The notes below the pieces were generated by a model that was not told the DNA's origin, searched no databases, and saw nothing but the letters and a program-made list of their open reading frames with translations. A DNA stretch of 64,000 nucleotides from Eledone cirrhosa (Eukaryota), in assembly GCA_964016885.1 (NCBI GenBank), contig OZ024745.1, forward strand, positions 58,032,001 through 58,096,000, given 5' to 3'. Positions 2,626 to 47,496 of this stretch are shown one piece after another; within the stretch, counting starts at the first letter, position 1, and each line of letters opens with the position of its first letter. The position numbers were made by a program, and so were the translations under genes.

Positions 2626-2649
2626 GTTGGTGGTAAAGAGAAAAGGCAC

Positions 2650-4298: not shown

Positions 4299-4329
<31 letters not shown>

Positions 4330-4509
4330 GTTGTTTTCAAATTCTTGTGTAGTTGTGGCTACATCTAGTGGTCGGTCAACAGGTGAAGACAATTCTTCCT
4401 CTCTCTGACCTCTGCCTTTGGCATCTGCTGCTGTGACAGTGGCAGGGGGAAGCTGTGAGTATGACTTCCCTTTTCTTTCTTTGATTGATGGTGAAGATGC
4501 TTCAGCCAT
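2650..4509 (-). CDS. ORF1, gag-like nucleic-acid-binding protein with CCHC zinc knuckle
   Basis: 622-aa ORF in track (2650..4518), first ATG at 4509. Knuckle CYLCGNRGHLRAAC = CX2CX4HX4C; flanks are rich in N, Q, P and T. Confidence 0.9.
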
Positions 4510-4728
4510 TTTTCTCAAAATAGGGTTTTTCGAAGTTTTTCGAAAGATAAAATGTTCACAATACTATTTCGCCCAAAGGCGCAGAATATTTTGAGAGACC
4601 GACCAGATCAAAATTTGACCTGGCAGTCCCTCTACAAAATGATACAAAAATGAAAGTTTACAGTTTACAATTTCCGTATGAATTTAAACAAAAACTTACC
4701 GAGCGAGCTCAGCACATGTGTCCATCGT

Positions 4729-4734
4729 AGAGAG

Positions 4735-4791
<57 letters not shown>
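4729..4791. repeat. (GATA)n microsatellite spacer between Tx1 units
   Basis: Direct reading. Confidence 0.97.
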
Positions 4792-7405
4792 TGTTTCTTT
4801 ATTAGCCACAGGGGCAAAAAAGAATGGATCGTGTGATATGGAACGGCTCCGACAGGTAGCCGTTCACCTTGATCCTTGAGCAGATGTTGCTGTTGTGCAT
4901 TGCAGCAATCCAGCCCCTGAACACGGGTCCGGAGCCTGCCGCTTCGAGCACCGCATCCAGGTAACGATGGTCAACCCTATCGAAAGCCTTAGACTGATCC
5001 AAGTTGATCAGGGCCCCACCGAAGCCTGGTTTACACCCTACCCTCTCTATGATGTATCGCATGAGGTGGAGGTTGTCATGTATGGACCTGGTCGGGATTG
5101 CGCATGTCTGCGCTTCTCCCACCAGGTTCTCGACGACAAGCGCCAGCCTCTTTGCCAACACCTTGGCCAAAATCTGTAACTCTGTGTTTAGCTGAGTTAT
5201 GGGCCGGAGGTTGCCTATGTCATCTCCCTTATTCTCGTCCTTCCTGTTCACACATCCAACTCTTATATTGGCCATGTTGGTGCTGAAATTTAAAAGAGGA
5301 AAAGAGATCACTCACCCTTCGCCTCCTGGGGACCAGGCCGCACTATTTCCATGGGGGTGTTGGAGGGGTTGTCTGGATGGGTGGTGGTTTCCGGCGGGGT
5401 GGGGACGCAGATGTTTGGTTGGGTGGGGTCTGGTGGGATGGGGATGTCTGGAGTGGGGAGACATTTGAGAAGGACGCGGTTGAGTGGTTTCACGCAGGAA
5501 TTCCCCACATCCTTCTCAAATGTTTCTTTTAGGGACCTATAAGTTTGTATAGGGACCCTAATCAGTTTTAGGTTCAGTTTTTTGCTATTTTTTATAGAGT
5601 GGGCGAAAGTTTTCCCTTCGGTTTTCACCGAAGGGTCGTTCGTGATGGTCTCCATTAGTGTTTTGTTTTCAGTGCTTATGTAAGTGTAAGTGTAATTTTC
5701 TTGTGTTGTGTTTGTTTTTGTCTGTAGTTCTTGTGTGTGCTTTCGTTTTGTTGTAGGTATTTTGTTTTCAGGAGGTGGGGGTTTTGTTTGTGATATTTTT
5801 GTTGTTTGTGTTGGTGGTTGTATGTTTGTGGTAGTGTTTGCTGGTTTTTTGCTTTTGTGATGTCTTTTCTTTCTTTTCCAGCGATGGGGTTCTCCCTCGT
5901 CTTCACTGGGTGATGGCGAGATAGCCTCATCTGTTGTATCGTCTGTGTGATTGGGGAGGGGTATGTCTTGGGGAGCTGTTGTGTCTGTATGTGATTTTGC
6001 AGTGGTTTTAGGTGGAGTGGGGTTGGGTGGGACTGTGTTTGTTGTGGTTATTTTTGTGTGTTGGTGTTGTTGTTGTGGTGGTGTTGGTGGTTGTGTTGTT
6101 TTGATGGGTGTCGGCAGAAGAGCCTTTTTTTGGAGGACAGGAAGCCCTCAGGTGACCCCTGCTAAAGCAATGGTAACATGAAGGCCGCCTACCCTCAACC
6201 GAAAGGTTTATGTAGGTAAGTCCGTCCAGGAGTACACGCTGTGGGATCATTTGCACTAGAACTTCAATGCTAGTCCCATTGAATACATCTCTGGGGGACT
6301 TTCCTACTGACAGTATTCTGTCTTCATCAAAATTGATGAAGCCGCACAGTATCCACCATATGTTCACCTTTGGTGTGACACTTGTGATTCTGATCTTTTG
6401 TGTCCTTTTTCCCATGTATGTAGGGAAAAGGGTGTACAGGTTGGATACAATTGGCGACACAGAGTAATTTTGTGCCGTCAATTGATCCTTCATCAGTACC
6501 GAAATACTCCCAAAAAGTTTGCTTCTTTGAATGAATGCAATATCATTCATTGAATCTTTGAAAACCAGTTCAATATCTTTCTGTGACAATTGGACTGGTT
6601 TTCTGGTAGAATTGGAAACTGTCCTAAAAACTATCGTTTTGGGAGCAGTTTCCTTGCGAATTTCTACCGGAGAATTGATGCTGAAAGCACCATTTTTTTC
6701 GAAGGTGACATATCTCTTAGCGTCCTTTAAAAGGTGTTCAGCATTTGTTATGTCGAGATATATCAATTGTTCTTTCTTTTGAACTTTCTCCGCAAAGGAG
6801 ATTTTTGGTTTCTTTGTGGAATCCGTATTGGTGGTGTTGTCATTATTGTTGTTATTTTTGTTGTTATTCTTGTTGTCACCGATGTTGGTATCATCCGTAT
6901 TTTCCTTGGTGTTGTTGTTGTCTTTGATGCTGGTGTTATTGGCGTTGTCTTTATTTTTTTCTTTGTTGTTGTTATCATGTTGCTTTTATCATCATTATTG
7001 GTTTTGCTGTTATTTTTGTTGTCATTGAGCTGTTTGGTGTCATTTGTGTTGTTTGGATGTGAATTCGTTTTTTTATTTTCATTTTGTCCTTCCATCTCTA
7101 TAGTATCTAGTGAAGAAGACGTTGTTGACTGCGAGCTTTGTAGTCTTACCGCCTCTCCACCACCATTATCGTTGGACGCAGCGTTCATAATTTAATCAAA
7201 ATTTTACAATATTTTTTCCAAGATTCGATGGAGAAAATTTTTTTAAATGGAAATTCCGCTCCTGAAGGGGCGAAAATGAGTTGACCCACCACCTGAAGGT
7301 CCAGACGGGTGGTCAAGTTACACAATGATGTACAATTTAACTAAAAACTCACGTTTTTTTCTTACATAAATTAACGGAAACTTCTCCGCGAAGTGACACA
7401 CGACT
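4791..7405 (-). mobile_element. Internally deleted non-autonomous Tx1 derivative, family B, copy B1 (~2.6 kb)
   Basis: Keeps the 5' UTR and a frameshifted ORF1 (6763..7188, 6008..6766, 5308..5655). ORF2 start MANIRVGCVN is fused in frame to RKDENKGD...HITRSI, then jumps to the last ~31 nt with AATAAA. Confidence 0.9.
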
Positions 7406-7429
7406 GATAGAGAGATAGATAGATAGATA
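7406..7429. repeat. (GATA)n spacer
   Basis: Direct reading. Confidence 0.9.
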
Positions 7430-9566
7430 TATTTCTTTATTAGCCACAGGGGCACAAAAGAAGGGGACAAATACAAAGGGGGAAGTTTACATACAATAAA
7501 AACGTGTAAAATGTTATCACAGATGGAATTTAAAAGTTAGTCGATTTTCCCCAATAGAGGGAGACAGTTTATATGGGTAACACAGACCCCCGAAAAAAAT
7601 GTGCAACCCTCATCTCCAGGAGTACGAAGAGCTTGTACTCCTTTCCTCTCCTCCTCCTTTTCCTCAACCTACAGGCTGATATAGAGAGAAGGCCCATTCA
7701 CTCGGGCCATTCTCGCCACTTTCACCCACCTTTCATAAAACTTGCTGGGGTACAGCACCTCTCTCTCCATCCTGATTCTTCTTCCAAAGTGGTATTTGAA
7801 AAAAAGAATCAGTTGTTGGCCGGAGAGAAAGGTGTCTGACCTCAGCCCTTTCAACCTTGTCCACCATACAACCTCTTTCGCCATAGCTATCACACAAAGG
7901 AAAACCGCCTCTCCTTCGTTTTTGAAGGAGGGTGGCGGTTTGATCATGACAATGGACTCGGTGGTCAACTGGATTGGTCCCACCCGCGACAATAGTCGTT
8001 CCACATAGCCCCACAGGTCAGTGACGCCCGGGCAGTGTATGAATGCGTGCGCGACGGTTTCTTCGTCTCGCACGCACCTCGGGCAGATCTTTTTTGCAGG
8101 GTCCCTGCCCGGGCGCCCATGTCTGTAGAGCTTGTCTCGAACTGGTAGAGCTCCTCGGTAGCACTGCCAGGCCAGGGACTTTTGGAAGTTGTCCATCGGT
8201 CCCGGGCGGAAGGTCCTACCGAACAGACTGGCCAGTTCATCTTCCTCCACGCCTAGAGTTTCACCGAGCGCGTCGTCGCACTTGCTGCGGACCAACCCTC
8301 TATAGAATGACGAAGTGGAGTCTCCACTGATCGCCGGGTCCGCCTGCCAGAGGGCTGTGAGCGCCTGAGCACATTCGATGTGCCAGTCGCCCATTTTCCT
8401 CGGTCTCTGCTTGACCCAGGACTGCAGCTCGGTCAGCGAGACGAGTCGTGGGAAGGCTCGCCTCACGAACGGGGCCCACACCGGTTGTCCGGTGAGGAAT
8501 ACGTAGAGATGCCGCAGCCTGAGCGCGTGTTTGCGCATCGTCAACCACGGCATCCCCAGCCCTCCGTTAGAAGGGTGTTGGCAGCAGATGGATCTTCTTA
8601 CCAAAGGAGCCCGCCTCTTCCAAAGGAATCGGAAGAGGGCGCGCTCCATTTTGGCGAGCGTTTTGGCTGGACAAGGCACGACGGTCAAGCGGTAGTAGAT
8701 GGCGGACGCTATAAAAGTGTTCGCCACCTCCGCTCGACCTTTCAAGGATAGTTTGCACTCGGCCCACTTCTGGGTGAGTGCAAACACCTTGGCCGTCACT
8801 TCGTTCCAGTTCTTCTCCACCTGGAGGTCCGGACCAAACCAGACCCCGAGCAGCTTTACCGGTCCTTCCGTCCAGCGTCCGACGACGCCATCGGAAGGCA
8901 TCGGTCTGCCTCTCCACGATCCGAGTTGCAAACCGATGGACTTGTCCCGGTTCAGCTTCGCTCCTGTGAGACTTTCGTATTCCTTTAGTAAGGTGCCGAC
9001 TTCCTCGATTTGCGAGGCGCTCGACACCATTACTGTCACGTCGTCGGCGTAGGCCGACGCCGCTTTCCGCAGTCCCGGTTCCAGAGGGATGCCCTGCAAT
9101 AGCTCCAGCTTCCGCAGTAGTGGCTCGAGAGTCAGTACGTACAGAAGGGAGGAGAGAGGGCATCCCTGTCGAATGGATCGCGTAATATGGAACGGCTCCG
9201 AGAGGTAACCGTTCACCTTGACCCTTGAGCAGATGTTGCTGTTGTGCATTGCAGCAATCCAGCCCCTGAACACGGGTCCGAAGCCTGCCGCCTCGAGCAC
9301 CGCATCCAGGTAACGATGGTCAACCCTATCGAAAGCCTTAGACTGATCCAAGTTGATCAGGGCCCCACCGAAGCCGGGTTTACACCCTACCCTCTCTATG
9401 ATGTATCGCATGAGGTGGAGGTTGTCGTGTATGGACCTGGTCGGGATCGCGCATGTCTGCGCTTCTCCCACCAGGTTCTCGACGACAAGCGCCAGCCTCT
9501 TTGCCAACACCTTGGCCAAAATCTGTAACTCTGTGTTTAGCAGAGTTATGGGCCGGAAGTTGCCTA
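7430..9566 (-). mobile_element. 5'-truncated Tx1-like element (copy C, undeleted 3' half of family B)
   Basis: RT segment VVENLVGEAQTCAIPTRSIHDNL...GCKPGFGG and 3' terminus match the B derivative. Full 3' UTR present. Confidence 0.9.
7669..9564 (-). pseudogene. 5'-truncated ORF2 (RT + C-terminal CCHC finger), open frame without a start
   Basis: QGCPLS, YADD, CPRC...HAFIHC; frame open from GNFRPIT at 9564. Confidence 0.88.
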
Positions 9567-9833
9567 GATAAGTTTCTTTTATTTGCCACTAGGGCATCAA
9601 AAGTGGGACAAGTACAAAGGGGGGAGTTTACACAAAAAGGCGTCCTCAATAAGGAGGAGGCAATAACAAAATATAAAAATAAAATAAGATATAACAAAAA
9701 TAAAATTTTTAACAAAATCCTCAATAGAGAGGAGGCGCCTTGGGGGGTCGCACACACCCCCGAAAAAAGTGTGCAACCCTTTTCCTCAGGAGCACAGAGA
9801 GGGGGTGCTCCCTCGTTCCTTCCTCTTTTCCAC

Positions 9834-12800
9834 CTACAGGCTTATGTAAAGAGAAGGCCCATTCACACGGGCCATTCTCGCCACTTTCACCCACCTTTCA
9901 TAAAAACGACTGGGGTGCAGCACCTCTCTCTCCATCCTGATCCTTCTTCCGAAATGATATCGGAAGAAACGGACCAGTTGTTGGCCAGAGAGAAAGGTGC
10001 CTGACCTCAGTCCTTTCAGACGCGTCCACCATACAACCTCTTTCGCCATGGCTATTACGCACAGAAACACCGCCTCTGCTTCATCTTTGAAGGGGGGAGG
10101 CGGCTTGATCATTACAATAGACTCGGTGGTCAACCGGATCGGTCCCACCCTTGACAGCAGTTGTTCGACATAGCCCCACAGATCGGCTACGCCCGAGCAG
10201 TGTACCAATGCGTGTGCAACGGTTTCCTCGTCGCACACGCATCTGGGACAGATCTTTTTGGCGGGGTCCCTACCCGGGCGCCCGTGTCTGTAGAGCCTTT
10301 CTCGAACGGGTAAAGCCCCTCGGTAGCACTGCCAGGCCAGGGACTTCTGGAAGTTGTCCATAGGTCCCGGGCTGAATGTCCTACCGAACAGGCTGGCCAG
10401 TTCGTCCTCCTCCATGTCTAGGGCTTCTCCGAGGGCGTCGTCGCACCTGCTGCGTACCAGCCCTCTATAGAATGTTGCGGTGGAGTCTCCACTGATAACC
10501 GGATCCGCCTGCCAGAGGGCGGTGAGCGCCTGGGCACACTCAGTGTGCCAGGCGCCCAGTTTTCTCGGTCTTTGCTTGACCCAGGATTGCAGCTCGGTGA
10601 GTGAGACGAGTCTGGGAAAGGTTCGTCTCACAAACGAGGCCCACACCGGTTGTCCGGTAAGGAATACGTAGAGGTGCCGTAGCCTTAATGCGTGTTTACG
10701 CATCATTAGCCACGGCATCCCCAGCCCTCCTTTCGAAGGGTGTTGACAGCAGATGGATCTCCTCACCATAGGAGCCCGCCCCTTCCAAAGGAATTGGAAG
10801 AGCGCGCGCTCCATCTTGGTGAGGGTTTCCCTTGGGCAGGGCACTACGGTCAGGCGGTAGTAGATGACGGACGCTATATAAGTGTTCGCCACCTCCGCCC
10901 GACCTTTCAGGGATAGTTTGCAACTGGCCCACTTCTGGGTCAGTGCAAACACCCTGTTCGTAACCTCCGCCCAGTTTTTCTCCACCTGGAGGTCCGGTCC
11001 GAACCAGACCCCGAGCAACTTCACCGGGCCCTCCGTCCAGCGTCCGACGACGCCATCGGAGGGCATCGGTCTGCCCCTCCACGTGCCGAGTTGCAAACCG
11101 ATCGACTTGTCCCGGTTCAGCTTAGCCCCTGTGAACTTTTCGTACTCCTCCAGTAAGTTGCCGACCGCCTCGATTTCGGAGGCCGTCGACACCATTACTG
11201 TCACATCATCGGCGTAGGCCGAAACCGCTTTCCGCAATCCCGGTTCCAAAGGGATGCCCTGCAACAACTCCAACTTCCGCAGTAGTGGCTCGAGAGTCAA
11301 CACATACAGAAGGGAGGAGAGAGGGCACCCTTGTCGGATGGACCGCGCGATTTTGAACGGCTCCGAGAGGTAGCCGTTCACCTTGACCCTAGAGCAGATG
11401 CGGCTGCTGTGCATAGCAGTGATCCAGCCCCTGAAAACGGGTCCGAAGCCTGCCGCCGCTAGCACCGCATTCAGGTAACCATGGTCGACCCTATCGAACG
11501 CCTTAGATTGATCCAAGTTGATCAGAGCCCCACCAAAGCCGGGTTCGTTCCCAACCCTCTCTATGATGTATCGCATGAGGTGGAGGTTGTCATGGATGGA
11601 CCTGGACGGGATAGCGCATGTCTGCGCATCTCCCACCAGGTTGCCCACGACAAGCGCCAACCTCTTTGCTAGCACCTTGGCCAAAATCTGTAACTCTGTA
11701 TTTAGCAGAGTTATGGGCCTGAAGTTACTTATTTCGTCCCCCTTGTTCTCGTCCTTCCTCACTAGCGTGACTACGCCCTTGGTCACAGTACAGGGAATTC
11801 TCCCGTTCTGTTGCCAGTTGCAGTAGACCGCCTCGAGGAGATCGGGGAACAAGTCCGGCATAGCTAGATATAATTCGTAAGGAAGACCATCGAGACCCGG
11901 GGATTTGCGTTTGCCGCATTGGCCCAGCACGTCCTCTATCTCAGCGGCCGAAATCGGCTCCTCGCAAGACTTCGCCTCCCTGTCCGAGAGGCGCGGCAGG
12001 CCGTCGAGGTATGGACCGAAGTCCACGTTTCCAACCGGCTCCCCGCCCCTCCCGAACAGTCGGGCAAAGTGCCTTTGAAAGGCCTCACACATCTGCTTAG
12101 GCTCAAGAATCGCCCGTCCATCCAGGTCTCGCAAAGACCGGATGGTGGATTTAGTTCCACTGTTGGCCTCTGTCACGCGGGCCCAGCTAACAGCTTTGGC
12201 CCCCTCGTTCCCTAGAGCACGTATTTTACTTCGGACAACGCAGCCTTCGTGCTTCGCGTCGAAAAACTGGCTCAAAGCCGTTCTCGACGCTAGCACTCTG
12301 GCCACGTCGCCGCTTCTAATTGCCTCTTCTACTCTATCTATTAGCTCCCTTTCCTTCCTATTCCTATCCGCAGCTAGAACCTTACTAAATTCAATCGAGA
12401 CTACTCTAATCTCTCTCTTTAGAGATACCCACCACCTGCTGTTGACGATCGCTCCAGTCAACCGTTCCTTAACTAACGTACTAATCCGATTCCTGTAGGC
12501 TCTACTTGCCGGCAAGGACAAGTTGAGCTTCCAGTAACCGGGGCCCTGTCTATGCGTTCTATCAAGGTTGACCATGCAGGTCACCAACTTGTGGTCTGAA
12601 TAGCCAACCATGAGCATTTCTGGACAACTTAAAAAGTCCCTGTCCTTATTTCTAACTAAAAATCTGTCTAGGTACGATCTAGATGATCCGCTGCGATTTG
12701 ACCAAGACCAGGTTGGCACCGTCGGAAAATCTAGTCGAAATCTATCGGCCAGGTCAAATCGGCCGAGTAACCCCTTGAGGCTGTTGCACCCCTCTCTATC

Positions 12801-13271
12801 GGGACATGCCCCTGCATAGTCCCAACGTGCATCCAGGATACCATTCCAATCCCCCACTAAAAGCAGGGAACGGGACGTCCCTAGAAAAGACTCCAGACGC
12901 TGGAAAAAGTCGGGCCGCTCTGTCCCAAAAGGGGCATATGCGGCTATCAGCCTAAGGGCTCTACCTTCACCACTGCCAAGGTCCAGCACCACCAGTCGAC
13001 CCCCTGGGTCCAAGTGAACTATCTGTGTTGCAAGGCCCATATGTTTTTGCAGCAGAACGACAACCCCACCCCCACCTCCGGGCTGACAGAGAGATGCGTG
13101 CATCTCAAAGTCGTCAAAGGTGGGGGCTAGCTGTCGCATGCTGCTGATCCGGGCCTCGCAGATAACCATCACATTTATAGATTGTGACCTGAGGTCATTT
13201 AGAAGCATTGCTTGCTTCCAAGACGAGCCCAGGCCACGCGCATTTAGACACCCTACTCTTAGCACAGCCAT
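9834..13271 (-). CDS. ORF2: APE endonuclease, reverse transcriptase, C-terminal zinc finger (~1145 aa)
   Basis: Track ORF 9834..13295, first ATG at 13271. Motifs LNARGL, GDWN, SYLDRF, SDHK, GPGYWKLN, KSPGLDG, RPITLLN, DQSKAFDRV, QGCPLS, YADD, CPRC..H..C are typical of Tx1/L1 ORF2. Confidence 0.95.
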   Translation of the reverse strand: MAVLRVGCLNARGLGSSWKQAMLLNDLRSQSINVMVICEARISSMRQLAPTFDDFEMHASLCQPGGGGGVVVLLQKHMGLATQIVHLDPGGRLVVLDLGSGEGRALRLIAAYAPFGTERPDFFQRLESFLGTSRSLLLVGDWNGILDARWDYAGACPDREGCNSLKGLLGRFDLADRFRLDFPTVPTWSWSNRSGSSRSYLDRFLVRNKDRDFLSCPEMLMVGYSDHKLVTCMVNLDRTHRQGPGYWKLNLSLPASRAYRNRISTLVKERLTGAIVNSRWWVSLKREIRVVSIEFSKVLAADRNRKERELIDRVEEAIRSGDVARVLASRTALSQFFDAKHEGCVVRSKIRALGNEGAKAVSWARVTEANSGTKSTIRSLRDLDGRAILEPKQMCEAFQRHFARLFGRGGEPVGNVDFGPYLDGLPRLSDREAKSCEEPISAAEIEDVLGQCGKRKSPGLDGLPYELYLAMPDLFPDLLEAVYCNWQQNGRIPCTVTKGVVTLVRKDENKGDEISNFRPITLLNTELQILAKVLAKRLALVVGNLVGDAQTCAIPSRSIHDNLHLMRYIIERVGNEPGFGGALINLDQSKAFDRVDHGYLNAVLAAAGFGPVFRGWITAMHSSRICSRVKVNGYLSEPFKIARSIRQGCPLSSLLYVLTLEPLLRKLELLQGIPLEPGLRKAVSAYADDVTVMVSTASEIEAVGNLLEEYEKFTGAKLNRDKSIGLQLGTWRGRPMPSDGVVGRWTEGPVKLLGVWFGPDLQVEKNWAEVTNRVFALTQKWASCKLSLKGRAEVANTYIASVIYYRLTVVPCPRETLTKMERALFQFLWKGRAPMVRRSICCQHPSKGGLGMPWLMMRKHALRLRHLYVFLTGQPVWASFVRRTFPRLVSLTELQSWVKQRPRKLGAWHTECAQALTALWQADPVISGDSTATFYRGLVRSRCDDALGEALDMEEDELASLFGRTFSPGPMDNFQKSLAWQCYRGALPVRERLYRHGRPGRDPAKKICPRCVCDEETVAHALVHCSGVADLWGYVEQLLSRVGPIRLTTESIVMIKPPPPFKDEAEAVFLCVIAMAKEVVWWTRLKGLRSGTFLSGQQLVRFFRYHFGRRIRMEREVLHPSRFYERWVKVARMARVNGPSLYISL

Positions 13272-13295
13272 GTTGGTGGTAAAGAGAAAAGGCAC

Positions 13296-14944
13296 TTACC
13301 TCTCTGCGTCCCGGGAAACGGGCCGCTCAATTTCCATGCTGGTTGGGGATGGGTTGTTGGGTGGGGTGGTGGTTTGTGGAAGTGAAGGGGCATCGGTGTG
13401 TTGTGGGGTTGGGGTGTTTGTCGTTGAGTGGGTGTCTGGGTGGGGTGGGGGGGTGAAATTTTTTAGGAGGACGCGGTTGATTGGTTTGGCGCAGGGGGGG
13501 CCCACGTCCTCCGTGAAATTTATTTTCAGTGTTTTGTACAAGTGCATTGGGACTTTTATCATTTTCAAATGAGGTAGTCCCACAGCAGTTATAAAGTTTG
13601 GCCCTTCAGTTTGGACCGAAGGGTTTGCTGAAATTGTTTTCCGTAATTCTTTGTTGTCTGTGTTCATGTATGTGTATTGTAAGGTCTTTTTTTGTGTAGC
13701 AGTTAGTGTTGTGTGACAGGGAGGGGTGGTTTGTGTGTAGTTTGTGTTCTCTTGGGGGGGGTTAAAGTTAACATGTGTGTCTGTGGTGCGTCTCCTCTTC
13801 TTTCTTTTTACTTGTTGGAAGGGATCTTTTTCGTCTTGCGACGAAAGAGGTTCGTCTTCCTTGTTGGGTGGGAGGGGTATGTTTTCTGGTAGTGTTTGCG
13901 GTGTGCGTGTTTTTGTATTTGTTTTGGGTGGGGAGGGATTGGGTGGGACAGTATTCTGTGTTATTTTTTCACGTGTTTGTTGTTGTTGTTGTTGTTGTTG
14001 TGGTGGTGGTGGTGGGGTTGTTGGTTTTTGTTGTTGTTGTGGTTGTTTTTGTTGTTGTAGTTGGGGTGGTGTTGGTGTTGGTAGCAGTGTTTTTTTCTGT
14101 GTGAGCTGGGGACAGGCAGCCCTCAGGTGACCTCTATTGCCACAGAGGTAACAGGAGGGACGCCTACCCTCCACAATAATGTTGAGGTGGGTACGGTCAT
14201 CCAGCATGACGCGCTCAGGGATTTGGGCGATGCGTTCTGGCCTTATTTGGGTCAGAACTTCGAGGCTCGTTCCACTGAACGCGTCGCCGGATGCCTTCCC
14301 TATTGAGATGAGGTTGTCCTCGTCTAAATTGAGGAAACCGGTTAGTAACCACCAGTAGTTTATGTTTGGGGTGATGGTGGTTATCCATATCCTCTGGGTT
14401 TTTTTACCCATGTAGGTGGGGAAGAAGGTGTAGTGTGTGGACCGAATTGGCGACACAGAGTATTTTTTTGCCGCCAATTCGTCTTTCATCAATATGGATA
14501 AACTCCCATAGAGTTTATCCTTTTGTATGAAAGTGATGTCTCTCATCGCGTCTTTCAAGACTAACTGAGTTTCCGTTTGAGATGGTTGCGCTGGTTTCTT
14601 TGTTTTATTTAAAATTGTTCGGAATACGACAGTTCGTAATTCCGTCTGTCTTTTTAGCTCCGGAGGTGAATGTATAGAAAACGATCCGTTTTCGCCAAAA
14701 GACACATATTTCTTGGCTTTTTCCAGCATTTCTTTTGCTTTTGAAATATCTTCCAGCACATAAGCGACTGATAATTTAGCCGTTTGTGCAAAAGATATTT
14801 TGTTTTCGCTTTGGATATTAGTATTGTTTTGTTTCTCGTCGTTTGCGTTGTTTTCATCTTTGTTGTTGTTGTTGTCTTTCTCGTTTCGTGTGTGGATACT
14901 TGTGACGTTTGTGTTGTTGTTGTTTTTGTTGTCTTTATTGTTGC

Positions 14945-14975
<31 letters not shown>

Positions 14976-15155
14976 GTTGTTTTCAAATTCTTGTGTAGTT
15001 GTGGCTACATCTAGTGGTCGGTCAACAGGTGAAGACAATTCTTCCTCTCTCTGACCTCTGCCTTTGGCATCTGCTGCTGTGACAGTGGCAGGGGGAAGCT
15101 GTGAGTATGACTTCCCTTTTCTTTCTTTGATTGATGGTGAAGATGCTTCAGCCAT
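13296..15155 (-). CDS. ORF1, gag-like protein with CCHC zinc knuckle
   Basis: Identical translation to ORF1 of A1; ATG at 15155. Confidence 0.9.
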
Positions 15156-15374
15156 TTTTCTCAAAATAGGGTTTTTCGAAGTTTTTCGAAAGATAAAATG
15201 TTCACAATACTATTTCGCCCAAAGGCGCAGAATATTTTGAGAGACCGACCAGATCAAAATTTGACCTGGCAGTCCCTCTACAAAATGATACAAAAATGAA
15301 AGTTTACAGTTTACAATTTCCGTATGAATTTAAACAAAAACTTACCGAGCGAGCTCAGCACATGTGTCCATCGT

Positions 15375-15380
15375 AGAGAG

Positions 15381-15441
<61 letters not shown>
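15375..15441. repeat. (GATA)n spacer
   Basis: One unit longer than the 4729-4791 spacer. Confidence 0.97.
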
Positions 15442-18055
15442 TGTTTCTTTATTAGCCACAGGGGCAAAAAAGAATGGATCGTGTGATATGGAACGGCTCC
15501 GACAGGTAGCCGTTCACCTTGATCCTTGAGCAGATGTTGCTGTTGTGCATTGCAGCAATCCAGCCCCTGAACACGGGTCCGGAGCCTGCCGCTTCGAGCA
15601 CCGCATCCAGGTAACGATGGTCAACCCTATCGAAAGCCTTAGACTGATCCAAGTTGATCAGGGCCCCACCGAAGCCTGGTTTACACCCTACCCTCTCTAT
15701 GATGTATCGCATGAGGTGGAGGTTGTCATGTATGGACCTGGTCGGGATTGCGCATGTCTGCGCTTCTCCCACCAGGTTCTCGACGACAAGCGCCAGCCTC
15801 TTTGCCAACACCTTGGCCAAAATCTGTAACTCTGTGTTTAGCTGAGTTATGGGCCGGAGGTTGCCTATGTCATCTCCCTTATTCTCGTCCTTCCTGTTCA
15901 CACATCCAACTCTTATATTGGCCATGTTGGTGCTGAAATTTAAAAGAGGAAAAGAGATCACTCACCCTTCGCCTCCTGGGGACCAGGCCGCACTATTTCC
16001 ATGGGGGTGTTGGAGGGGTTGTCTGGATGGGTGGTGGTTTCCGGCGGGGTGGGGACGCAGATGTTTGGTTGGGTGGGGTCTGGTGGGATGGGGATGTCTG
16101 GAGTGGGGAGACATTTGAGAAGGACGCGGTTGAGTGGTTTCACGCAGGAATTCCCCACATCCTTCTCAAATGTTTCTTTTAGGGACCTATAAGTTTGTAT
16201 AGGGACCCTAATCAGTTTTAGGTTCAGTTTTTTGCTATTTTTTATAGAGTGGGCGAAAGTTTTCCCTTCGGTTTTCACCGAAGGGTCGTTCGTGATGGTC
16301 TCCATTAGTGTTTTGTTTTCAGTGCTTATGTAAGTGTAAGTGTAATTTTCTTGTGTTGTGTTTGTTTTTGTCTGTAGTTCTTGTGTGTGCTTTCGTTTTG
16401 TTGTAGGTATTTTGTTTTCAGGAGGTGGGGGTTTTGTTTGTGATATTTTTGTTGTTTGTGTTGGTGGTTGTATGTTTGTGGTAGTGTTTGCTGGTTTTTT
16501 GCTTTTGTGATGTCTTTTCTTTCTTTTCCAGCGATGGGGTTCTCCCTCGTCTTCACTGGGTGATGGCGAGATAGCCTCATCTGTTGTATCGTCTGTGTGA
16601 TTGGGGAGGGGTATGTCTTGGGGAGCTGTTGTGTCTGTATGTGATTTTGCAGTGGTTTTAGGTGGAGTGGGGTTGGGTGGGACTGTGTTTGTTGTGGTTA
16701 TTTTTGTGTGTTGGTGTTGTTGTTGTGGTGGTGTTGGTGGTTGTGTTGTTTTGATGGGTGTCGGCAGAAGAGCCTTTTTTTGGAGGACAGGAAGCCCTCA
16801 GGTTACCCCTGCTAAAGCAATGGTAACATGAAGGCCGCCTACCCTCAACCGAAAGGTTTATGTAGGTAAGTCCGTCCAGGAGTACACGCTGTGGGATCAT
16901 TTGCACTAGAACTTCAATGCTAGTCCCATTGAATACATCTCTGGGGGACTTTCCTACTGACAGTATTCTGTCTTCATCAAAATTGATGAAGCCGCACAGT
17001 ATCCACCATATGTTCACCTTTGGTGTGACACTTGTGATTCTGATCTTTTGTGTCCTTTTTCCCATGTATGTAGGGAAAAAGGTGTACAGGTTGGATACAA
17101 TTGGCGACACAGAGTAATTTTGTGCCGTCAATTGATCCTTCATCAGTACCGAAATACTCCCAAAAAGTTTGCTTCTTTGAATGAATGCAATATCATTCAT
17201 TGAATCTTTGAAAACCAGTTCAATATCTTTCTGTGACAATTGGACTGGTTTTCTGGTAGAATTGGAAACTGTCCTAAAAACTATCGTTTTGGGAGCAGTT
17301 TCCTTGCGAATTTCTACCGGAGAATTGATGCTGAAAGCACCATTTTTTTCGAAGGTGACATATCTCTTAGCGTCCTTTAAAAGGTGTTCAGCATTTGTTA
17401 TGTCGAGATATATCAATTGTTCTTTCTTTTGAACTTTCTCCGCAAAGGAGATTTTTGGTTTCTTTGTGGAATCCGTATTGGTGGTGTTGTCATTATTGTT
17501 GTTATTTTTGTTGTTATTCTTGTTGTCACCGATGTTGGTATCATCCGTATTTTCCTTGGTGTTGTTGTTGTCTTTGATGCTGGTGTTATTGGCGTTGTCT
17601 TTATTTTTTTCTTTGTTGTTGTTATCATGTTGCTTTTATCATCATTATTGGTTTTGCTGTTATTTTTGTTGTCATTGAGCTGTTTGGTGTCATTTGTGTT
17701 GTTTGGATGTGAATTCGTTTTTTTATTTTCATTTTGTCCTTCCATCTCTATAGTATCTAGTGAAGAAGACGTTGTTGACTGCGAGCTTTGTAGTCTTACC
17801 GCCTCTCCACCACCATTATCGTTGGACGCAGCGTTCATAATTTAATCAAAATTTTACAATATTTTTTCCAAGATTCGATGGAGAAAATTTTTTTAAATGG
17901 ATATTCCGCCCCTGAAGGGGCGAAAATGAGTTGACCCACCACCTGAAGGTCCAGACGGGTGGTCAAGTTACACAATGATGTACAATTTAACTAAAAACTC
18001 ACGTTTTTTTCTTACATAAATTAACGGAAACTTCTCCGCGAAGTGACACACGACT
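15441..18055 (-). mobile_element. Internally deleted Tx1 derivative, copy B2
   Basis: Near-identical to B1 (offset 10650). Confidence 0.9.
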
Positions 18056-18062
18056 GATAGAG

Positions 18063-18104
<42 letters not shown>

Positions 18105-18105
18105 T

Positions 18106-18166
<61 letters not shown>
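18056..18166. repeat. (GATA)n spacer with one GTTA variant
   Basis: Direct reading; GTTA at 18104. Confidence 0.97.
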
Positions 18167-18167
<1 letters not shown>

Positions 18168-20781
18168 TGTTTCTTTATTAGCCACAGGGGCAAAAAAGAA
18201 TGGATCGTGTGATATGGAACGGCTCCGACAGGTAGCCGTTCACCTTGATCCTTGAGCAGATGTTGCTGTTGTGCATTGCAGCAATCCAGCCCCTGAACAC
18301 GGGTCCGGAGCCTGCCGCTTCGAGCACCGCATCCAGGTAACGATGGTCAACCCTATCGAAAGCCTTAGACTGATCCAAGTTGATCAGGGCCCCACCGAAG
18401 CCTGGTTTACACCCTACCCTCTCTATGATGTATCGCATGAGGTGGAGGTTGTCATGTATGGACCTGGTCGGGATTGCGCATGTCTGCGCTTCTCCCACCA
18501 GGTTCTCGACGACAAGCGCCAGCCTCTTTGCCAACACCTTGGCCAAAATCTGTAACTCTGTGTTTAGCTGAGTTATGGGCCGGAGGTTGCCTATGTCATC
18601 TCCCTTATTCTCGTCCTTCCTGTTCACACATCCAACTCTTATATTGGCCATGTTGGTGCTGAAATTTAAAAGAGGAAAAGAGATCACTCACCCTTCGCCT
18701 CCTGGGGACCAGGCCGCACTATTTCCATGGGGGTGTTGGAGGGGTTGTCTGGATGGGTGGTGGTTTCCGGCGGGGTGGGGACGCAGATGTTTGGTTGGGT
18801 GGGGTCTGGTGGGATGGGGATGTCTGGAGTGGGGAGACATTTGAGAAGGACGCGGTTGAGTGGTTTCACGCAGGAATTCCCCACATCCTTCTCAAATGTT
18901 TCTTTTAGGGACCTATAAGTTTGTATAGGGACCCTAATCAGTTTTAGGTTCAGTTTTTTGCTATTTTTTATAGAGTGGGCGAAAGTTTTCCCTTCGGTTT
19001 TCACCGAAGGGTCGTTCGTGATGGTCTCCATTAGTGTTTTGTTTTCAGTGCTTATGTAAGTGTAAGTGTAATTTTCTTGTGTTGTGTTTGTTTTTGTCTG
19101 TAGTTCTTGTGTGTGCTTTCGTTTTGTTGTAGGTATTTTGTTTTCAGGAGGTGGGGGTTTTGTTTGTGATATTTTTGTTGTTTGTGTTGGTGGTTGTATG
19201 TTTGTGGTAGTGTTTGCTGGTTTTTTGCTTTTGTGATGTCTTTTCTTTCTTTTCCAGCGATGGGGTTCTCCCTCGTCTTCACTGGGTGATGGCGAGATAG
19301 CCTCATCTGTTGTATCGTCTGTGTGATTGGGGAGGGGTATGTCTTGGGGAGCTGTTGTGTCTGTATGTGATTTTGCAGTGGTTTTAGGTGGAGTGGGGTT
19401 GGGTGGGACTGTGTTTGTTGTGGTTATTTTTGTGTGTTGGTGTTGTTGTTGTGGTGGTGTTGGTGGTTGTGTTGTTTTGATGGGTGTCGGCAGAAGAGCC
19501 TTTTTTTGGAGGACAGGAAGCCCTCAGGTTACACCTGCTAAAGCAATGGTAACATGAAGGCCGCCTACCCTCAACCGAAAGGTTTATGTAGGTAAGTCCG
19601 TCCAGGAGTACACGCTGTGGGATCATTTGCACTAGAACTTCAATGCTAGTCCCATTGAATACATCTCTGGGGGACTTTCCTACTGACAGTATTCTGTCTT
19701 CATCAAAATTGATGAAGCCGCACAGTATCCACCATATGTTCACCTTTGGTGTGACACTTGTGATTCTGATCTTTTGTGTCCTTTTTCCCATGTATGTAGG
19801 GAAAAAGGTGTACAGGTTGGATACAATTGGCGACACAGAGTAATTTTGTGCCGTCAATTGATCCTTCATCAGTACCGAAATACTCCCAAAAAGTTTGCTT
19901 CTTTGAATGAATGCAATATCATTCATTGAATCTTTGAAAACCAGTTCAATATCTTTCTGTGACAATTGGACTGGTTTTCTGGTAGAATTGGAAACTGTCC
20001 TAAAAACTATCGTTTTGGGAGCAGTTTCCTTGCGAATTTCTACCGGAGAATTGATGCTGAAAGCACCATTTTTTTCGAAGGTGACATATCTCTTAGCGTC
20101 CTTTAAAAGGTGTTCAGCATTTGTTATGTCGAGATATATCAATTGTTCTTTCTTTTGAACTTTCTCCGCAAAGGAGATTTTTGGTTTCTTTGTGGAATCC
20201 GTATTGGTGGTGTTGTCATTATTGTTGTTATTTTTGTTGTTATTCTTGTTGTCACCGATGTTGGTATCATCCGTATTTTCCTTGGTGTTGTTGTTGTCTT
20301 TGATGCTGGTGTTATTGGCGTTGTCTTTATTTTTTTCTTTGTTGTTGTTATCATGTTGCTTTTATCATCATTATTGGTTTTGCTGTTATTTTTGTTGTCA
20401 TTGAGCTGTTTGGTGTCATTTGTGTTGTTTGGATGTGAATTCGTTTTTTTATTTTCATTTTGTCCTTCCATCTCTATAGTATCTAGTGAAGAAGACGTTG
20501 TTGACTGCGAGCTTTGTAGTCTTACCGCCTCTCCACCACCATTATCGTTGGACGCAGCGTTCATAATGTAATCAAAATTTTACAATATTTTTTCCAAGAT
20601 TCGATGGAGAAAATTTTTTTAAATGGATATTCCGCCCCTGAAGGGGCGAAAATGAGTTGACCCACCACCTGAAGGTCCAGACGGGTGGTCAAGTTACACA
20701 ATGATGTACAATTTAACTAAAAACTCACGTTTTTTTCTTACATAAATTAACGGAAACTTCTCCGCGAAGTGACACACGACT
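18167..20781 (-). mobile_element. Internally deleted Tx1 derivative, copy B3
   Basis: Tandem copy of B2, period 2726. Confidence 0.9.
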
Positions 20782-20788
20782 GATAGAG

Positions 20789-20826
<38 letters not shown>

Positions 20827-20827
20827 T

Positions 20828-20892
<65 letters not shown>
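20782..20892. repeat. (GATA)n spacer with one GTTA variant
   Basis: Direct reading; GTTA at 20826. Confidence 0.97.
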
Positions 20893-20893
<1 letters not shown>

Positions 20894-22928
20894 TGTTTCT
20901 TTATTAGCCACAGGGGCAAAAAAGAATGGATCGTGTGATATGGAACGGCTCCGACAGGTAGCCGTTCACCTTGATCCTTGAGCAGATATTGCTGTTGTGC
21001 ATTGCAGCAATCCAGCCCCTGAACACGGGTCCGGAGCCTGCCGCCTCGAGCACCGCATCCAGGTAACGATGGTCAACCCTATCGAAAGCCTTAGACTGAT
21101 CCAAGTTGATCAGGGCCCCACCGAAGCCTGGTTTACACCCTACCCTCTCTATGATGTATCGCATGAGGTGGAGGTTGTCATGTATGGACCTGGTCGGGAT
21201 TGCGCATGTCTGCGCTTCTCCCACCAGGTTCTCGACGACAAGCGCCAGCCTCTTTGCCAACACCTTGGCCAAAATCTGTAACTCTGTGTTTAGCTGAGTT
21301 ATGGGCCGGAGGTTGCCTATGTCATCTCCCTTATTCTCGTCCTTCCTGTTCACACATCCAACTCTTATATTGGCCATGTTGGTGCTGAAATTTAAAAGAG
21401 GAAAAGAGATCACTCACCCTTCGCCTCCTGGGGACCAGGCCGCACTATTTCCATGGGGGTGTTGGAGGGGTTGTCTGGATGGGTGGTGGTTTCCGGCGGG
21501 GTGGGGACGCAGATGTTTGGTTGGGTGGGGTCTGGTGGGATGGGGATGTCTGGAGTGGGGAGACATTTGAGAAGGACGCGGTTGAGTGGTTTCACGCAGG
21601 AATTCCCCACATCCTTCTCAAATGTTTCTTTTAGGGACCTATAAGTTTGTATAGGGACCCTAATCAGTTTTAGGTTCAGTTTTTTGCTATTTTTTATAGA
21701 GTGGGCGAAAGTTTTCCCTTCGGTTTTCACCGAAGGGTCGTTCGTGATGGTCTCCTTTAGTGTTTTGTTTTCAGTGTTTATGTAAGTGTAAGTGTAATTT
21801 TCTTGTGTTGTGTTTGTTTTTGTCTGTAGTTCTTGTGTGTGCTTTCGTTTTGTTGTAGGTATTATGTTTTCAGGAGGTGGGGGTTTTGTTTGTGATGTTT
21901 TTGTTGTTTGTGTTGGTGGTTGTATGTGTGTGGTAGTGTTTGCTGGTTTTTTGCTTTTGTGATGTCTTTTCTTTCTTTTCGAGCGATGGGGTTCTCCCTC
22001 GTCTTCACTGGGTGATGGCGAGATAGCCTCATCTGTTGTATCGTCTGTGTGATTGAGGAGGGGTATGTCTTGGGGAGCTGTTGTGTCTGTATGTGATTTT
22101 GCAGTGGTTTTAGGTGGAGTGGGGTTGGGTGGGACTGTGTTTGTTGTGGTTATTTTTGTGTGTTGGTGTTGTTGTTTCCTTGCGAATTTCTACCGGAGAT
22201 TTGATGCTGAAAGCACCATTTTTTTCGAAAGTGACATATCTCTTAGCGTCCTTTAAAAGTTGTTCAGTATTTGTTATGTCGGGATATATCAATTCTTCCT
22301 TCTTTTGAACTTTCTCTGCAAAGGAGATTTTGGTTTCTTTGTGTAATCCGTATTGGTGGTGTTGTCATCATTGTTGTTATTGTTGTTATTCTTGTTGTCG
22401 CCGATGTTGATAGTATTCGTCTTTTCCTTGGTGTTGTTGTTGTCTTTGATGCTGGTGTTATTGGTGTTGTCTTTATTTTTTTCTTCGTTGTTGTTATCAA
22501 TGCTGCTTTTATCATCATTATTGGTGTTGCTGTTATTTTTGTTGTCATTGAACTGTTTGGTGTCATTTGTGTTGTTTGGATATGAATTCGTTTTTACATT
22601 TTCATTTTGTCTTTCCATCTCTATAGTATCTAGTGAAGAAGACGTTGTTGACTGCGAGCTTTGTAGTCTTACCGCCTCTCCACCACCATTATCGTTGGAC
22701 GCTGCGTTCATAACGTAATCAAAATTTTACAATATTTTTTCCAAGATTTGATGGAGAAACATTTTTTAAGTGTATATTCCGCCCCTGTAGGGGTGAAAAT
22801 GAGTTGACGCACCACCTGAAGGTTCAGACGGGTGGTCAAGTTACACAATGATATAAAATTTAACTAAAAACTCACGTTTTTTTCTTAGATAAATTAACGG
22901 AAACTTCTCAGTGAAGTTACACACGTCT
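20893..22928 (-). mobile_element. Internally deleted Tx1 derivative, copy B4, with an extra ~0.58-kb ORF1 deletion and a more diverged 5' part
   Basis: Same two ORF2 deletion junctions as B1-B3. An additional junction near 22175 removes the zinc-knuckle region. Confidence 0.88.
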
Positions 22929-23160
22929 GATAGATAGATAGATATATTTCTTTATTTACCATAAAGGCATAAAAGAAGGGCCAAATACAAAGGGGGAGTT
23001 TACATACAATCGAGTAAAAAGGGTATAAAATGAAAATAATCGAAAACAACCTCAAAAGGGAGGGGACGTGATGGGGGTTGCACACACCCCCGAAAAAGTG
23101 TGCAATCCTTTGCCCGGGGAGCACATGGAGAAGGTGCTCCCCTCTCCTTCACTTCTTTAC

Positions 23161-26100
23161 CTACAGGATGGTATACAGAGAAGGCTCATTTACACGAGCC
23201 ACTCTCGCCACTATCACCCACCTTTCATAAAACTGCCTGTGGTCAAGCACCTCTCTCTCCAATCTTATCCTTCTTCCGAAGTGATATCGGAAGAAGTAGA
23301 CCAGACTATGGCCAGAGAGGAAGTTGCCTGACCTCAGACCTTTCAATCGTGTCCACCAAACAACCTCTTTCAACATGGCTATTACGCACAGAAAAACCGC
23401 CTTTGCTTCCTTTGTGAAGAGGGGAGGCGGCTTGATTGTCATCACGGACTCGGCGGTCAATTTAATCGGCGCCACCCGCGACAGCAGTCGTTCGGCGTAG
23501 CCCCACAGATCAGCTACGCCCGGACATTGCACCAATGCGTGCGCAACGGTTTCTTCGTGACGCACACATCTAGGGCAAATCTTTTTTGAGGGATCCCTGC
23601 CCGGGCGCCCGTGTCTGTAGAGCCTCTCTCGAACGGGTAGAGCCCCCCGGTAGCACTGCCAGGCTAGTGACTTCTGGAAGTTGTCCATTGGTCCCGGGCC
23701 GAAAGTCCTACCGAACAGGCTGGCCAGTTCGTCCTCTTCCATGTCCAGCGACTCTCCAAGGGTGTCATCGCCCCTGCTAGCCACCAGCCCTCTATAGAAT
23801 GATGAAGTGGATTCTCCACCGATGGCCTGGCCCGCTGGCCAGAGAGCCCTGAGCGCCTGGGCACACTCAGTGTGCCAGTCTCCCAGTTTTCCGGATCTTT
23901 GCTTGACCCAGGACTGCAGCTCAGTGAGCGAGACGAGTCTCGGAAAGGCTCGTTTCACGAACGGAGCCCACACCGGTTGACCAGTGAGGAATACCTATAG
24001 GTGCCGTAGCCTTAATGCGTGCCTACGCATCATCAACCACGGCATCCCCAGCCCTCCTTTCGAAGGTTGTTGGCAGCAGATGGATCTTCTCACCATAGGA
24101 GGGCGTTTCTTCCAAATAAATTGGAAGAGCATGCGTTCCATGGTGGTGAGTGTTTCCTTAGGGTAAGGAACGACAGTCAAGCGGTAGTAAGTGACGGACG
24201 CTATGTAAATGTTCGCCACCTCCGCCCGACCTTTTAGGGACAGCTTACACTTGGCCCATTTCTGGGTTAGTGCAAACACCTTGTTCGTAACCTCGTCCCA
24301 GTTCTTTTCCACCTGGAGGTCCGGTCCAAATCAGACCCCAAGCAACTTCACCGGGCCCTCCGTCCAGTGTCCGACAACACCGTCGGGAGGCATCGGTCTG
24401 CCTCTCCACGTTCCGAGTTGCAGCCCGATGGATTTTTCCCGGTTCAGTTTCGCTCCTGACAACCTTTCGTAATCCTCTAGTAAGGTACCGATCGCCTCGA
24501 TCTCCGACTCGGTCGATACCATTACTGTTACGTCATCGGCGTAGGCCGACACCGCTTTGCTCAATCCTGGTTCCAGGGGGATACCCTGCAACAACTCCAA
24601 CTTCCTCAGTAAAGGTTCGAGAGTCAATACGTACAGAAGGGAGGAGAGAGGGCACCCCTGTCGAATGGATCGTGTGATTTCGAACGGCTTCGAAAGGTAG
24701 CCGTTCACCTTGATCCTAGAACAGATGTGGTTGCTATGTAAGGCAGTGATCCAGCCTCTGAAAACAGGACCGAACCCAGCCGCCGCTAGCACCGCATCCA
24801 GGTAACCATGGTCGACCCTATCGAAGGCCTTAGACTGATCCAAGTTGATCAGGGCCCCACCGAAGCCGGGTTTGTTGCCAACCCTCTCTATGATGTATCG
24901 CATGAGGTGGAGGTTATCGTGAATAGACCTGGATGGGATAGCACATGTCTGCGCATCTCCCACCAGGCTACCCACCACAAGCGCCAACCTCTTTGCTAAC
25001 ACCTTGGCCAAAATCTTTAACTCTGTGTTTAGCAGGGTTATGGGCCGAAAATTATTTATATTATCCCCCTTGTTCTCGTCCTTCCTCACCAGCGAGACTA
25101 CGCCCTTGGCTACAGAACAAGGAATTCTCCCGTTCTGCTGCCAATTACAGCAGACCGCTTCGAGGAGTTCGGAGAAGAAGACCGGCATTGCTAAATAAAG
25201 TTCGTAAGGTATACCATCGAGACCTGGAGATTTGCGTCTGCTGCATTGGCTCAGCGCATCCCCGATCTCATCAGCCGAGATTGGTCCCTCGCAGGACTCT
25301 GCCTCATCGCTCGAGAGACGCGGCAGGCCGTCGAGGTATGGACCGAAATCCACGTCCCCTCCCGGACCCTCGCCTCCCCCGAATAATCGGGTAAAGTGCC
25401 TTTGAAAGGCCTCGCACATCTGCTTAGGCTCCCGGATCACCCGTCCATCCTCGTCTTGCAAAGACCGGATGGTGGATCGATTTCTACTCTTAGCTTCTGT
25501 CACGCGGGCCCAGCCAACGGCTTTGGCCCCCTCATTACCTAGAGCACGTATTTTACTTCGAATGACGCAGCCTTCGTGCTTTGCATCGAAAAACTGGTTC
25601 AAGGCCGTCCTCGATGCCAGCACTCTGGCCACATCTTCGCTCTTGATTGCTTCTTCTAATTTACCTGTTAATTCTTTCTCGTTTCTATTCCTATCGGCAG
25701 CTAACATCTTGCTATAACTTATTGATTCTGTTCTAATCTCTCTTTTGAGAGATGCCCACCATCGGTTGTTGACGATGCACCCGTCAACCTCTCCTTAACT
25801 AATCTGCTAATCCGTTTTCTGTAAGTCTCTTTTGCCGGTAAAGACAAATTAAGTTTCCAGTAACCGGGACCCAGTTTATGTGTTTTCTCGAGATTGACTA
25901 TGCAGGTCACTAATTTGTGATCCGTATAGACAACCGTGAGCATTTCTGGACAGCTTAATATGTCCCTATCCTTACTTCTAACTAAGAATCTATCTAAGTA
26001 CGATCTAGATTGACCACTGTGGTTCGTCCAAGTCCAGGTTGGCACAGTTGGAAAATCTAGTCGATATCTATCGACCAAGTTAAAACGGTCGAGTAACCCC

Positions 26101-26597
26101 TTGAGGCTGTTACACCCCCCTCTATTAGGACATGCTCCTGCATAGTCCCAACGTGCATCAAGGATGTAGTTCCAATCCCCCGCTAAAAACAGGGAACGCG
26201 ACGTTCCCAGAAAAGTCTCCAAACGCTGGAAGAAGTCGGGCCGTTCAGCTCCGAAAGGGGAGTAGACGGCGACCAGTCTCAAGGCCGCACCTTCACTACT
26301 GCCAACGTCTAGCACCAACAAACGACCCTCCGGGTCCGAGTGAACAACCTGTACGGCAAGACCCAGGTGTTTTTCCAGCAGTACGACAACCCCACACCCA
26401 CCTCCAGGTTGACAGAGAGATGCATGCACCTCAAAGTCATCGAAGGTAGGGGCCAGCTGCCGCACGACACTGATCCGAGTCTCACAGATAACCATTACAT
26501 TTAGACCACATGACCTGCGGTCATTTAAAAACTTTGCTTGCTTCCAAGTTGAGCCCAGGCCACCAGCATTTAAACATCCTACTCTTAACACATCCAT
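23161..26597 (-). pseudogene. Frameshifted ORF2 (APE + RT + zinc finger) of copy D
   Basis: Fragments 25719..26597, 24331..25707, 23995..24312 and 23161..23973 are collinear with A2 ORF2. Confidence 0.9.
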
Positions 26598-26630
26598 GTG
26601 GGCGGCAGTGACAAAGAAGAGTGTAGAGAC

Positions 26631-47293: not shown

Positions 47294-47496
47294 AATAATA
47301 CATAACTGACTCCATAATTCTAGAGCAATTATTATTATTGTTTTTATTTTCTTTCATTATTGTTTCTGAGATATATGCCGAGTGTCTTCCTGACATCTAG
47401 GGCAAATAAATTCACAGTGTGCATTGGTAAGCCAATTAATACAGCACATTGATTATAATTTTTTAAAAAAAGAAGAAAAAAAAGAAAAGAAAAAAA

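Follow-up and report, generated by a model that had tools for sequence, protein, structure and literature searches.

A doubly deleted LINE relic in a (GATA)n array of Eledone cirrhosa, probably multiplied by DNA-level exchange

HAL1 (half-L1) and the other bipartite long interspersed nuclear elements (LINEs) in which a first open reading frame (ORF1) is present, such as HeT-A and Ag-Sponge, encode ORF1p according to the accessible portions of their descriptions (PMC5753468, PMC5786205). A degenerate R2 element of Bacillus rossius, called a "dead element replicating" in the available part of its account, was multiplied most likely by unequal recombination (PMC4370867). Target preference is described, in the available text of another source, as yielding head-to-tail tandem transposable elements able to expand by recombination, among which internal deletions are common (PMC5932611). 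Kibi and Koshi, which insert into (TC)n and (TTC)n, respectively, are microsatellite-targeting LINEs of the Tx1 clade by the accessible part of their description (PMC4494074). The stretch analysed here, called the window, comprises 64,000 nucleotides (nt) of Eledone cirrhosa DNA (G000:C5:58032001-58096000), and the elements in question, called B, are deleted copies of a (GATA)n-targeting LINE (the parent), 2.0-2.6 kb in length. B is very probably a dead LINE relic amplified at the DNA level and not a HAL1-like parasite, and its five copies likely arose by unequal DNA exchange inside a tandem LINE array and not by retrotransposition.

The left half of the window, together with 10 kb beyond its left edge, was a head-to-tail array of related retrotransposons without long terminal repeats, all on the minus strand and with (GATA)n runs between them. 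Their order on the plus strand was P0, B0, A1, B1, C, A2, B2, B3, B4 and D. The initial annotation had counted four B copies; four were present in the window over the span that it gave, but a fifth (B0) lay just left of the window, and B4 was structurally distinct.

B0, G000:C5:58028270-58030884, minus strand: copy left of the window, adjoining P0
B1, 4791..7405, minus strand: doubly deleted LINE copy, a hybrid of a B0 5' half and a B2 3' half
B2, 15441..18055, minus strand: doubly deleted copy with two ORF1 frameshifts
B3, 18167..20781, minus strand: tandem copy, 2 substitutions relative to B2
B4, 20893..22928, minus strand: triply deleted copy, older-subfamily haplotype throughout, 611-nt ORF1 gap at 22176/22177

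Deletions were mapped by comparison with a full-length parent copy of 5,845 nt (L044, G000:C28:32182763-32188607) and were observed directly. All five B copies lacked parent positions 2197-3678 (deletion 1; 1,482 nt with the endonuclease, EN; in frame, 1-nt microhomology) and 4101-5811 (deletion 2; 1,711 nt from YADD to the 3' untranslated region, UTR; TTC/GAA microhomology). The tail kept after the microhomology measured 31 nt (31-34 nt out of a 240-nt 3' UTR), and both parental ends were kept, as parent positions 1-2196 and the last 31-34 nt were present. The loss of EN and YADD and the jump through GAA to the last 31 nt thus agreed with the initial annotation, and so did the in-frame fusion of ORF2 to about 140 codons of the reverse transcriptase (RT). 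The fused frame consisted of 157 amino acids (aa), namely ORF2 aa 1-10, approximately aa 505-645 and 6 out-of-frame residues, and was open in all five B copies. It matched Pfam RVT_1 at positions 4-106 of 205, approximately the first half of the RT domain without the catalytic motif (YADD, parent ORF2 aa 686, was absent), and retained its own ATG and upstream context.

Junction 1 in B2, 15896..15897, minus strand: ORF2 codon 10 joined to about codon 505
Junction 1 in the other copies, 5246/5247, 18622/18623 and 21348/21349, minus strand
Junction 2 in B2, 15472..15475, minus strand: RT joined to the 3' tail via TTC/GAA
Junction 2 in the other copies, near 4824, 18200 and 20926, minus strand
Fused frame in B1, 4802..5275, minus strand: 157 aa, 10 ORF2 codons, RT fragment and 6 residues
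Truncated ORF1 in B1, 6763..7188, minus strand: about 70 in-frame codons, a frameshift, and a stop after 141 aa
ORF1 lesions in B1, 6133..6251, minus strand: 11-nt frameshift at 6133/6134 and in-frame 21-nt loss at 6250/6251, likewise in B0, B2 and B3

ORF1 was broken in every copy. In B0-B3 the losses were 1 nt at codon 71, 21 nt (in frame) at codon 314 and 11 nt at codon 360; B4 carried a different 1-nt frameshift plus the 611-nt gap, which deleted the CCHC knuckle (aa 345-358). The ATG-initiated reading of ORF1 was about 141 aa out of 638 in all five B copies, without the zinc knuckle, and half of it was out of frame in B0-B3. At these sites, the most frequent states listed across 57 family copies included neither the 1-nt nor the 11-nt deletion. 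The claim that B keeps ORF1 held for the region, the ORF1/ORF2 junction and the first 10 ORF2 codons, but not for a readable frame. The first 755 nt of B4 differed from B0-B3 at 44-47 of 751 sites, and B4 was no simple fourth copy. An origin of the deletions by splicing was rejected, with no GT..AG at any placement of the three large deletions on either strand, and so was programmed frameshifting at an A-run of ORF1, where the shift was the 11-nt deletion relative to the parent.

Exact junction patterns had 5 and 4 matches in the single 3.0-Gb assembly against which all genome searches were run. With up to 2 mismatches each junction had 5 matches, all at C5:58,028,286-58,053,361 (within 25 kb), and the reversed-pattern control had 0. 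That the junctions might occur in the tandem array only had been named beforehand as the outcome speaking for duplication of a dead copy, and this was the outcome. No unlinked junction copy was found in the assembly, against 6,335 exact parent 3' ends, nor any 5'-truncated B copy; with a distance of 31 nt between junction 2 and the 3' end, the count would have included even short retrocopies truncated on the 5' side. B was thus not dispersed at independent sites (5/5 matches per junction at one locus). DNA searches with three B parts returned nothing but B copies above 98% identity (40 candidates scored for each). A closer unsampled parent of the RT part or of the ORF1/ORF2 junction was considered and rejected, the best outside matches being 97% and 98% (best 40 of 1,569 and best 40 of 1,925 candidates, respectively); B2 as a query had many 97% matches on other chromosomes (best 40 of 5,991 candidates scored).

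When contigs of four public runs were aligned to B2, both their letters and their loose ends at junction 2 were of the parent type. At junction 1 no bridging piece was present among the contig matches listed for these runs, which does not amount to absence, as contigs drop rare variants. One 58-nt contig of run X2 crossed junction 2 without a difference, with fewer than 31 letters on each side, and was not counted as bridging. Restriction-site-associated DNA reads of X15 (14 reads) and X16 (10 reads) departed from B at junction 1 into parent sequence.

The 3' spacers of B0, B3 and B4 were each 112 nt long with one GTTA, an interruption observed in 1/104 flanks of other family copies; sharing so rare a spacer indicates that the flank was copied along with the element. 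The position of GTTA shifted among these equal-length spacers (9/17, 11/15 and 10/16 units), which may reflect misaligned exchange or consensus polishing. B0-B3 were 2-9 substitutions apart in 2,615 nt and formed one clade (100/100). B positions 2170, 2463 and 2589 were the only ones at which B1 and B0 differed, and B positions 146, 154, 976 and 1252 the only ones at which B1 and B2 differed; A1 differed from A2 at 2 of 5,809 sites. This pattern of B1 and A1/A2 is the product expected of a B0 x B2 crossover across A, or of an assembly haplotype join. At 57 diagnostic sites, B4 had the older-subfamily haplotype throughout, and B0-B3 were mostly young and then old from approximately parent 1790-1815. 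Around this probable crossover, B4 and B2 differed at 7/433 sites on the 5' side and at 2/851 sites on the 3' side (Fisher p = 0.009). The haplotype switch, the hybrid B1 and the shared flanks are marks of homologous exchange between neighbours.

Spacer, G000:C5:58028159-58028270: 3' flank of B0, 112 nt with GTTA
Spacer, 18056..18167, no strand: 3' flank of B3, 112-nt (GATA)n with a GTTA interruption
Spacer, 20782..20893, no strand: 3' flank of B4, 112-nt (GATA)n with a GTTA interruption as in the B3 spacer
Probable crossover in B2, 16276..16304, minus strand: younger-subfamily 5' part to older deleted 3' part, at the same place in B0, B1 and B3
P0, adjoining B0: full-length parent copy
A1, 1..4729 (start 1,079 nt left of the window), minus strand: full-length sister-family LINE, 2 substitutions relative to A2
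A2, 9567..15375, minus strand: full-length sister-family LINE with ORF1 and ORF2 open (EN, RT, zf-RVT)
C, 7430..9566, minus strand: 5'-truncated, very young parent-family copy
D, 22945..28760, minus strand: decayed full-length member of a third related family, at the array end

C had been described as the undeleted 3' half of the same family from which the breakpoint could be mapped. It was of that family (99.9% to L044, 97% to B), but it began 29 nt 3' of junction 1, so that it maps junction 2 only and is not the source of B. C is a later, independent insertion.

The order of events leading to the B array can be reconstructed conditionally. Target-specific insertion would have stacked related elements within a single microsatellite, head to tail, where an older-subfamily copy would have lost two pieces of ORF2 through joins at short microhomologies, either at insertion or later in DNA. 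A crossover near parent 1790-1815 would then have given B0-B3 the 5' part of a younger neighbour, with B4 keeping the older 5' part, and misaligned exchange would have copied a 2,726-nt unit including the spacer. A would subsequently have inserted into one spacer, and a B0 x B2 crossover would have duplicated the A-containing block and yielded the hybrid B1.

Several observations weigh against this reading of B as a dead relic multiplied by DNA exchange. A single assembly was searched, which B copies that are polymorphic, unassembled or in stretches outside the searched sequence could escape. Site 5819 grouped B4 with B1-B3 against B0, which needs one further exchange. Junction 1 was in frame (one chance in three), with the 157-aa frame open in all five B copies, and both B ends were kept; nothing observed forbids transcription or trans mobilisation. 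Private coding changes of B2 were 9 nonsynonymous (N) to 9 synonymous (S), against 528:206 in 57 other copies (Fisher p = 0.06; one-sided binomial p = 0.04; neutral expectation near 75% N). This excess of S could be a weak hint of earlier selection, or could have been inherited from an unsampled active sub-lineage. Shared private ORF1 changes in B were 5 N to 6 S, against 394:159 in controls (p = 0.09), and private changes in the RT fragment were 3 N to 3 S, too few to weigh. The ORF1 frameshifts argue against purifying selection on the ORF1 of B.

The parent element, from which B derives, had 5,845 nt, an ORF1 of 638 aa and an ORF2 of 1,145 aa. ORF2 contained the Pfam domains Exo_endo_phos, RVT_1 and zf-RVT, and its closest solved structure was L1 ORF2p (E 2.6e-51). 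ORF1 had a CCHC knuckle (CX2CX4HX4C) at aa 345 and no match in a Pfam search; its look-alikes carried zf-CCHC (scores 0.90-0.92), which is a lead only. The parent is presumably Tx1-like, a label taken from architecture and target habit, no named Tx1 reference being present in the protein search. Exact matches genome-wide numbered 6,335 for the 22-mer of the parent 3' end and 425 for the 24-mer of the 5' end. Among 56 fetched parent copies, which were picked by similarity and not at random, all 56 had at least two TATC within 30 nt upstream, 46/48 had the target downstream, and 13/56 had both ORFs at full length. The TATC target was also present in 25/30 of the 3' ends taken in genome order, and a poly(A) tail was found in none of 30 sampled family 3' ends. 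Near-identical intact parent copies were numerous and often head to tail (for example L044, L051 at C1:63.92 Mb and L056 at C11:44.09 Mb), which shows the family to have been recently active, and it is strictly (GATA/TATC)n-targeting. At least two sister families (A and D), approximately 80-87% alike in ORF2, used the same (GATA)n target. A target of the (GATA)n type was not found described in the literature searched, which lay outside Repbase and the bulk of the subscription journals. The parent family, which numbers thousands of copies and includes intact members, may be of use in studying or engineering target-specific insertion.

Internal deletions were ordinary in the parent family. A gap of at least 50 nt was present in 7/56 5'-anchored parent copies, all 7 among the 40 older ones, and 6/30 of the first 3' ends on C1 had a private internal jump within 1.5 kb, no two at one position (1/30 gave no alignment, and in some cases the jump may be where a truncated insertion abuts a neighbour). 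In L225 and L232 the ORF1 region was joined straight to the last 300-350 nt. Spacings of approximately 2.7 kb in the list of 5' ends led to a second, independent derivative composed of the ORF1 region plus a tail. It had 6 copies in three duplicated arrays at C1:211.9-213.0 Mb and none elsewhere, the arrays sharing their downstream flank at >99%. Its ORF1 was broken in 6/6 copies and read 51-141 aa, and two matching slots in the third array shared the 108-nt gap in ORF1 yet had ORF2 undeleted. The same local process thus occurred twice, in the C5 array and in the C1 cluster.

L214, L220, L225, L232, L236 and L238, C1:12-30 Mb: 3' ends with private internal jumps
L240-L244 and L248-L250, G000:C1:211.92-212.98 Mb: second-derivative arrays, nested deletions from parent 2567

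Another candidate mobile derivative, L138 (G000:C2:55.50 Mb) and L144 (54.30 Mb), had parent 1-1535 followed by 240 nt of unrelated sequence and by the 3' half of a relative; it was rejected as a segmental duplication, the flanking DNA being shared at 97.6% over 2.2 kb.

Outside the array, the window had a 200-N assembly gap at 29872-30071, approximately 1.1 kb past the array end and beside a long (TA)n run. A second nest at 47494-58263 consisted of minus-strand fragments of another RT-bearing LINE type, with local duplications of about 0.9 kb and 2.7 kb, and of two plus-strand 3' halves (approximately 49.2-51.2 and 52.0-53.9 kb) of a more distant relative of the array families (72-75%).

An effect of assembly on part of the copy number, in which the B repeats led to the fusion of one haplotype carrying C with another lacking it, and so to the A1/A2 duplication and the hybrid B1, is unlikely, and does not exclude DNA exchange. 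The 2/5,809 differences between A1 and A2, the exact B0/B2 hybrid in B1, the presence of C in only one of two blocks and the equal total length of the three GTTA spacers despite the shifted GTTA all agree with it. However, B0, B2, B3 and B4 each had substitutions of their own (2-9 among B0-B3), which is more than two haplotypes hold, and B4 was structurally distinct. A real unequal crossover would look alike; a join would change the count of copies but not the verdict.

Mobilisation of B in trans by the parent ORF2 protein, in the manner of HAL1 or SIDEs and through serial (GATA)n insertions or loci outside the assembly, is quite improbable, and within the searched assembly it was largely refuted. 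It would accord with the retention of both ends and of the target repeat, with the existence of parents intact in both ORFs, with bipartite non-autonomous LINEs being known in the accessible parts of two sources (PMC5786205; PMC3414825), and with the slight S excess, and the mosaic of young 5' and old 3' parts could come from a template switch. Standing against it are the lack of an unlinked junction among 6,335 family 3' ends and of any 5'-truncated B copy in the assembly, the broken ORF1, the retention of merely 31-34 nt of the 3' UTR, the flank variant common to three copies and the recombinant B1. The HAL1 analogy of the initial annotation fails on the coding ORF1, which defines HAL1 and is absent from B, and on the junctions at one locus; the retained parts consequently define no minimal cis signals, and of the two origins that it had proposed, the locally amplified relic stood and the parasite mobilised in trans did not.

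A bolder form, in which arrays are incubators of LINE parasites and B is an incipient HAL1- or SIDE-like element already mobilised in trans with its 31-34 nt tail at sites outside the assembly, would be a long shot. It is equally doubtful in conjunction with its second part, that the family throws off derivatives of 5' part plus tail at a high rate (approximately one 3' end in five) and the arrays multiply and recombine them. If true, it would imply that a very short signal at the 3' end suffices for recognition in a microsatellite-targeting LINE. That the 157-aa EN-less RT fragment is made, inhibits the parent as a dominant negative and caused the array to be kept, a role earlier suggested for the peptide, is scarcely credible: the frame is open in all five B copies with its ATG and upstream context, and its private changes are 3 N to 3 S (too few to weigh), but the fragment is about the first half of the RT domain without a catalytic motif, F517L and L522Q, both private to it (1/73 and 0/73 family copies, respectively), alter near-invariant residues, the divergence among the copies (2-9 changes) is too recent for the open frame to be a sign of selection, five copies face hundreds of 5'-complete relatives, and the many near-identical intact parents show the family to be recently active regardless.

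As a dead relic, B matters little in itself, being decay and local duplication of a LINE copy, or ordinary genomic debris. It cautions that finding several near-identical deleted copies within a window does not make them a non-autonomous family, and the locus illustrates cleanly how unequal exchange operates in an array that LINEs have built themselves.

Compared with known systems, so far as the accessible portions of the sources cited describe them, B resembles HAL1, HeT-A and Ag-Sponge as an L1-type two-ORF element with an internal deletion in which the 5' part, the ORF1 region and the 3' end are kept (PMC5753468, PMC5786205). HAL1-type elements encode ORF1p and have spread as families by transposition (PMC5753468, PMC5786205), whereas B is confined to one locus and combines a broken ORF1 with a stray RT fragment; among the HAL1 traits, B had the lack of a functional ORF2, and neither an intact ORF1 nor dispersal. 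R2 SIDEs, like B, derive by internal deletion from a non-LTR element with target specificity and lie within an array of that target, but they show variable 5' junctions or target duplications marking insertion by target-primed reverse transcription, in contrast with the shared flanks and crossover marks of B (PMC3414825). In B no truncated copy was found, the GTTA spacer was common to B0, B3 and B4, and target duplications were unreadable inside the microsatellite. The parent is like Kibi and Koshi in its two ORFs, APE-type endonuclease with RT and zf-RVT, CCHC knuckle in ORF1 and strict microsatellite target; it differs in targeting (GATA/TATC)n, and the likeness is one of architecture and not of a tree with named references (PMC4494074). 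The tandem elements described as satellite seeds belong to another host and family, and B amounts to merely five 2.7-kb units (PMC5932611). Closest in the way it works is the degenerate R2 of Bacillus rossius, which is likewise dead, without 5'-truncated forms and in a tandem array; there the array is ribosomal DNA, whereas for B it is the LINEs themselves in a (GATA)n run (PMC4370867).

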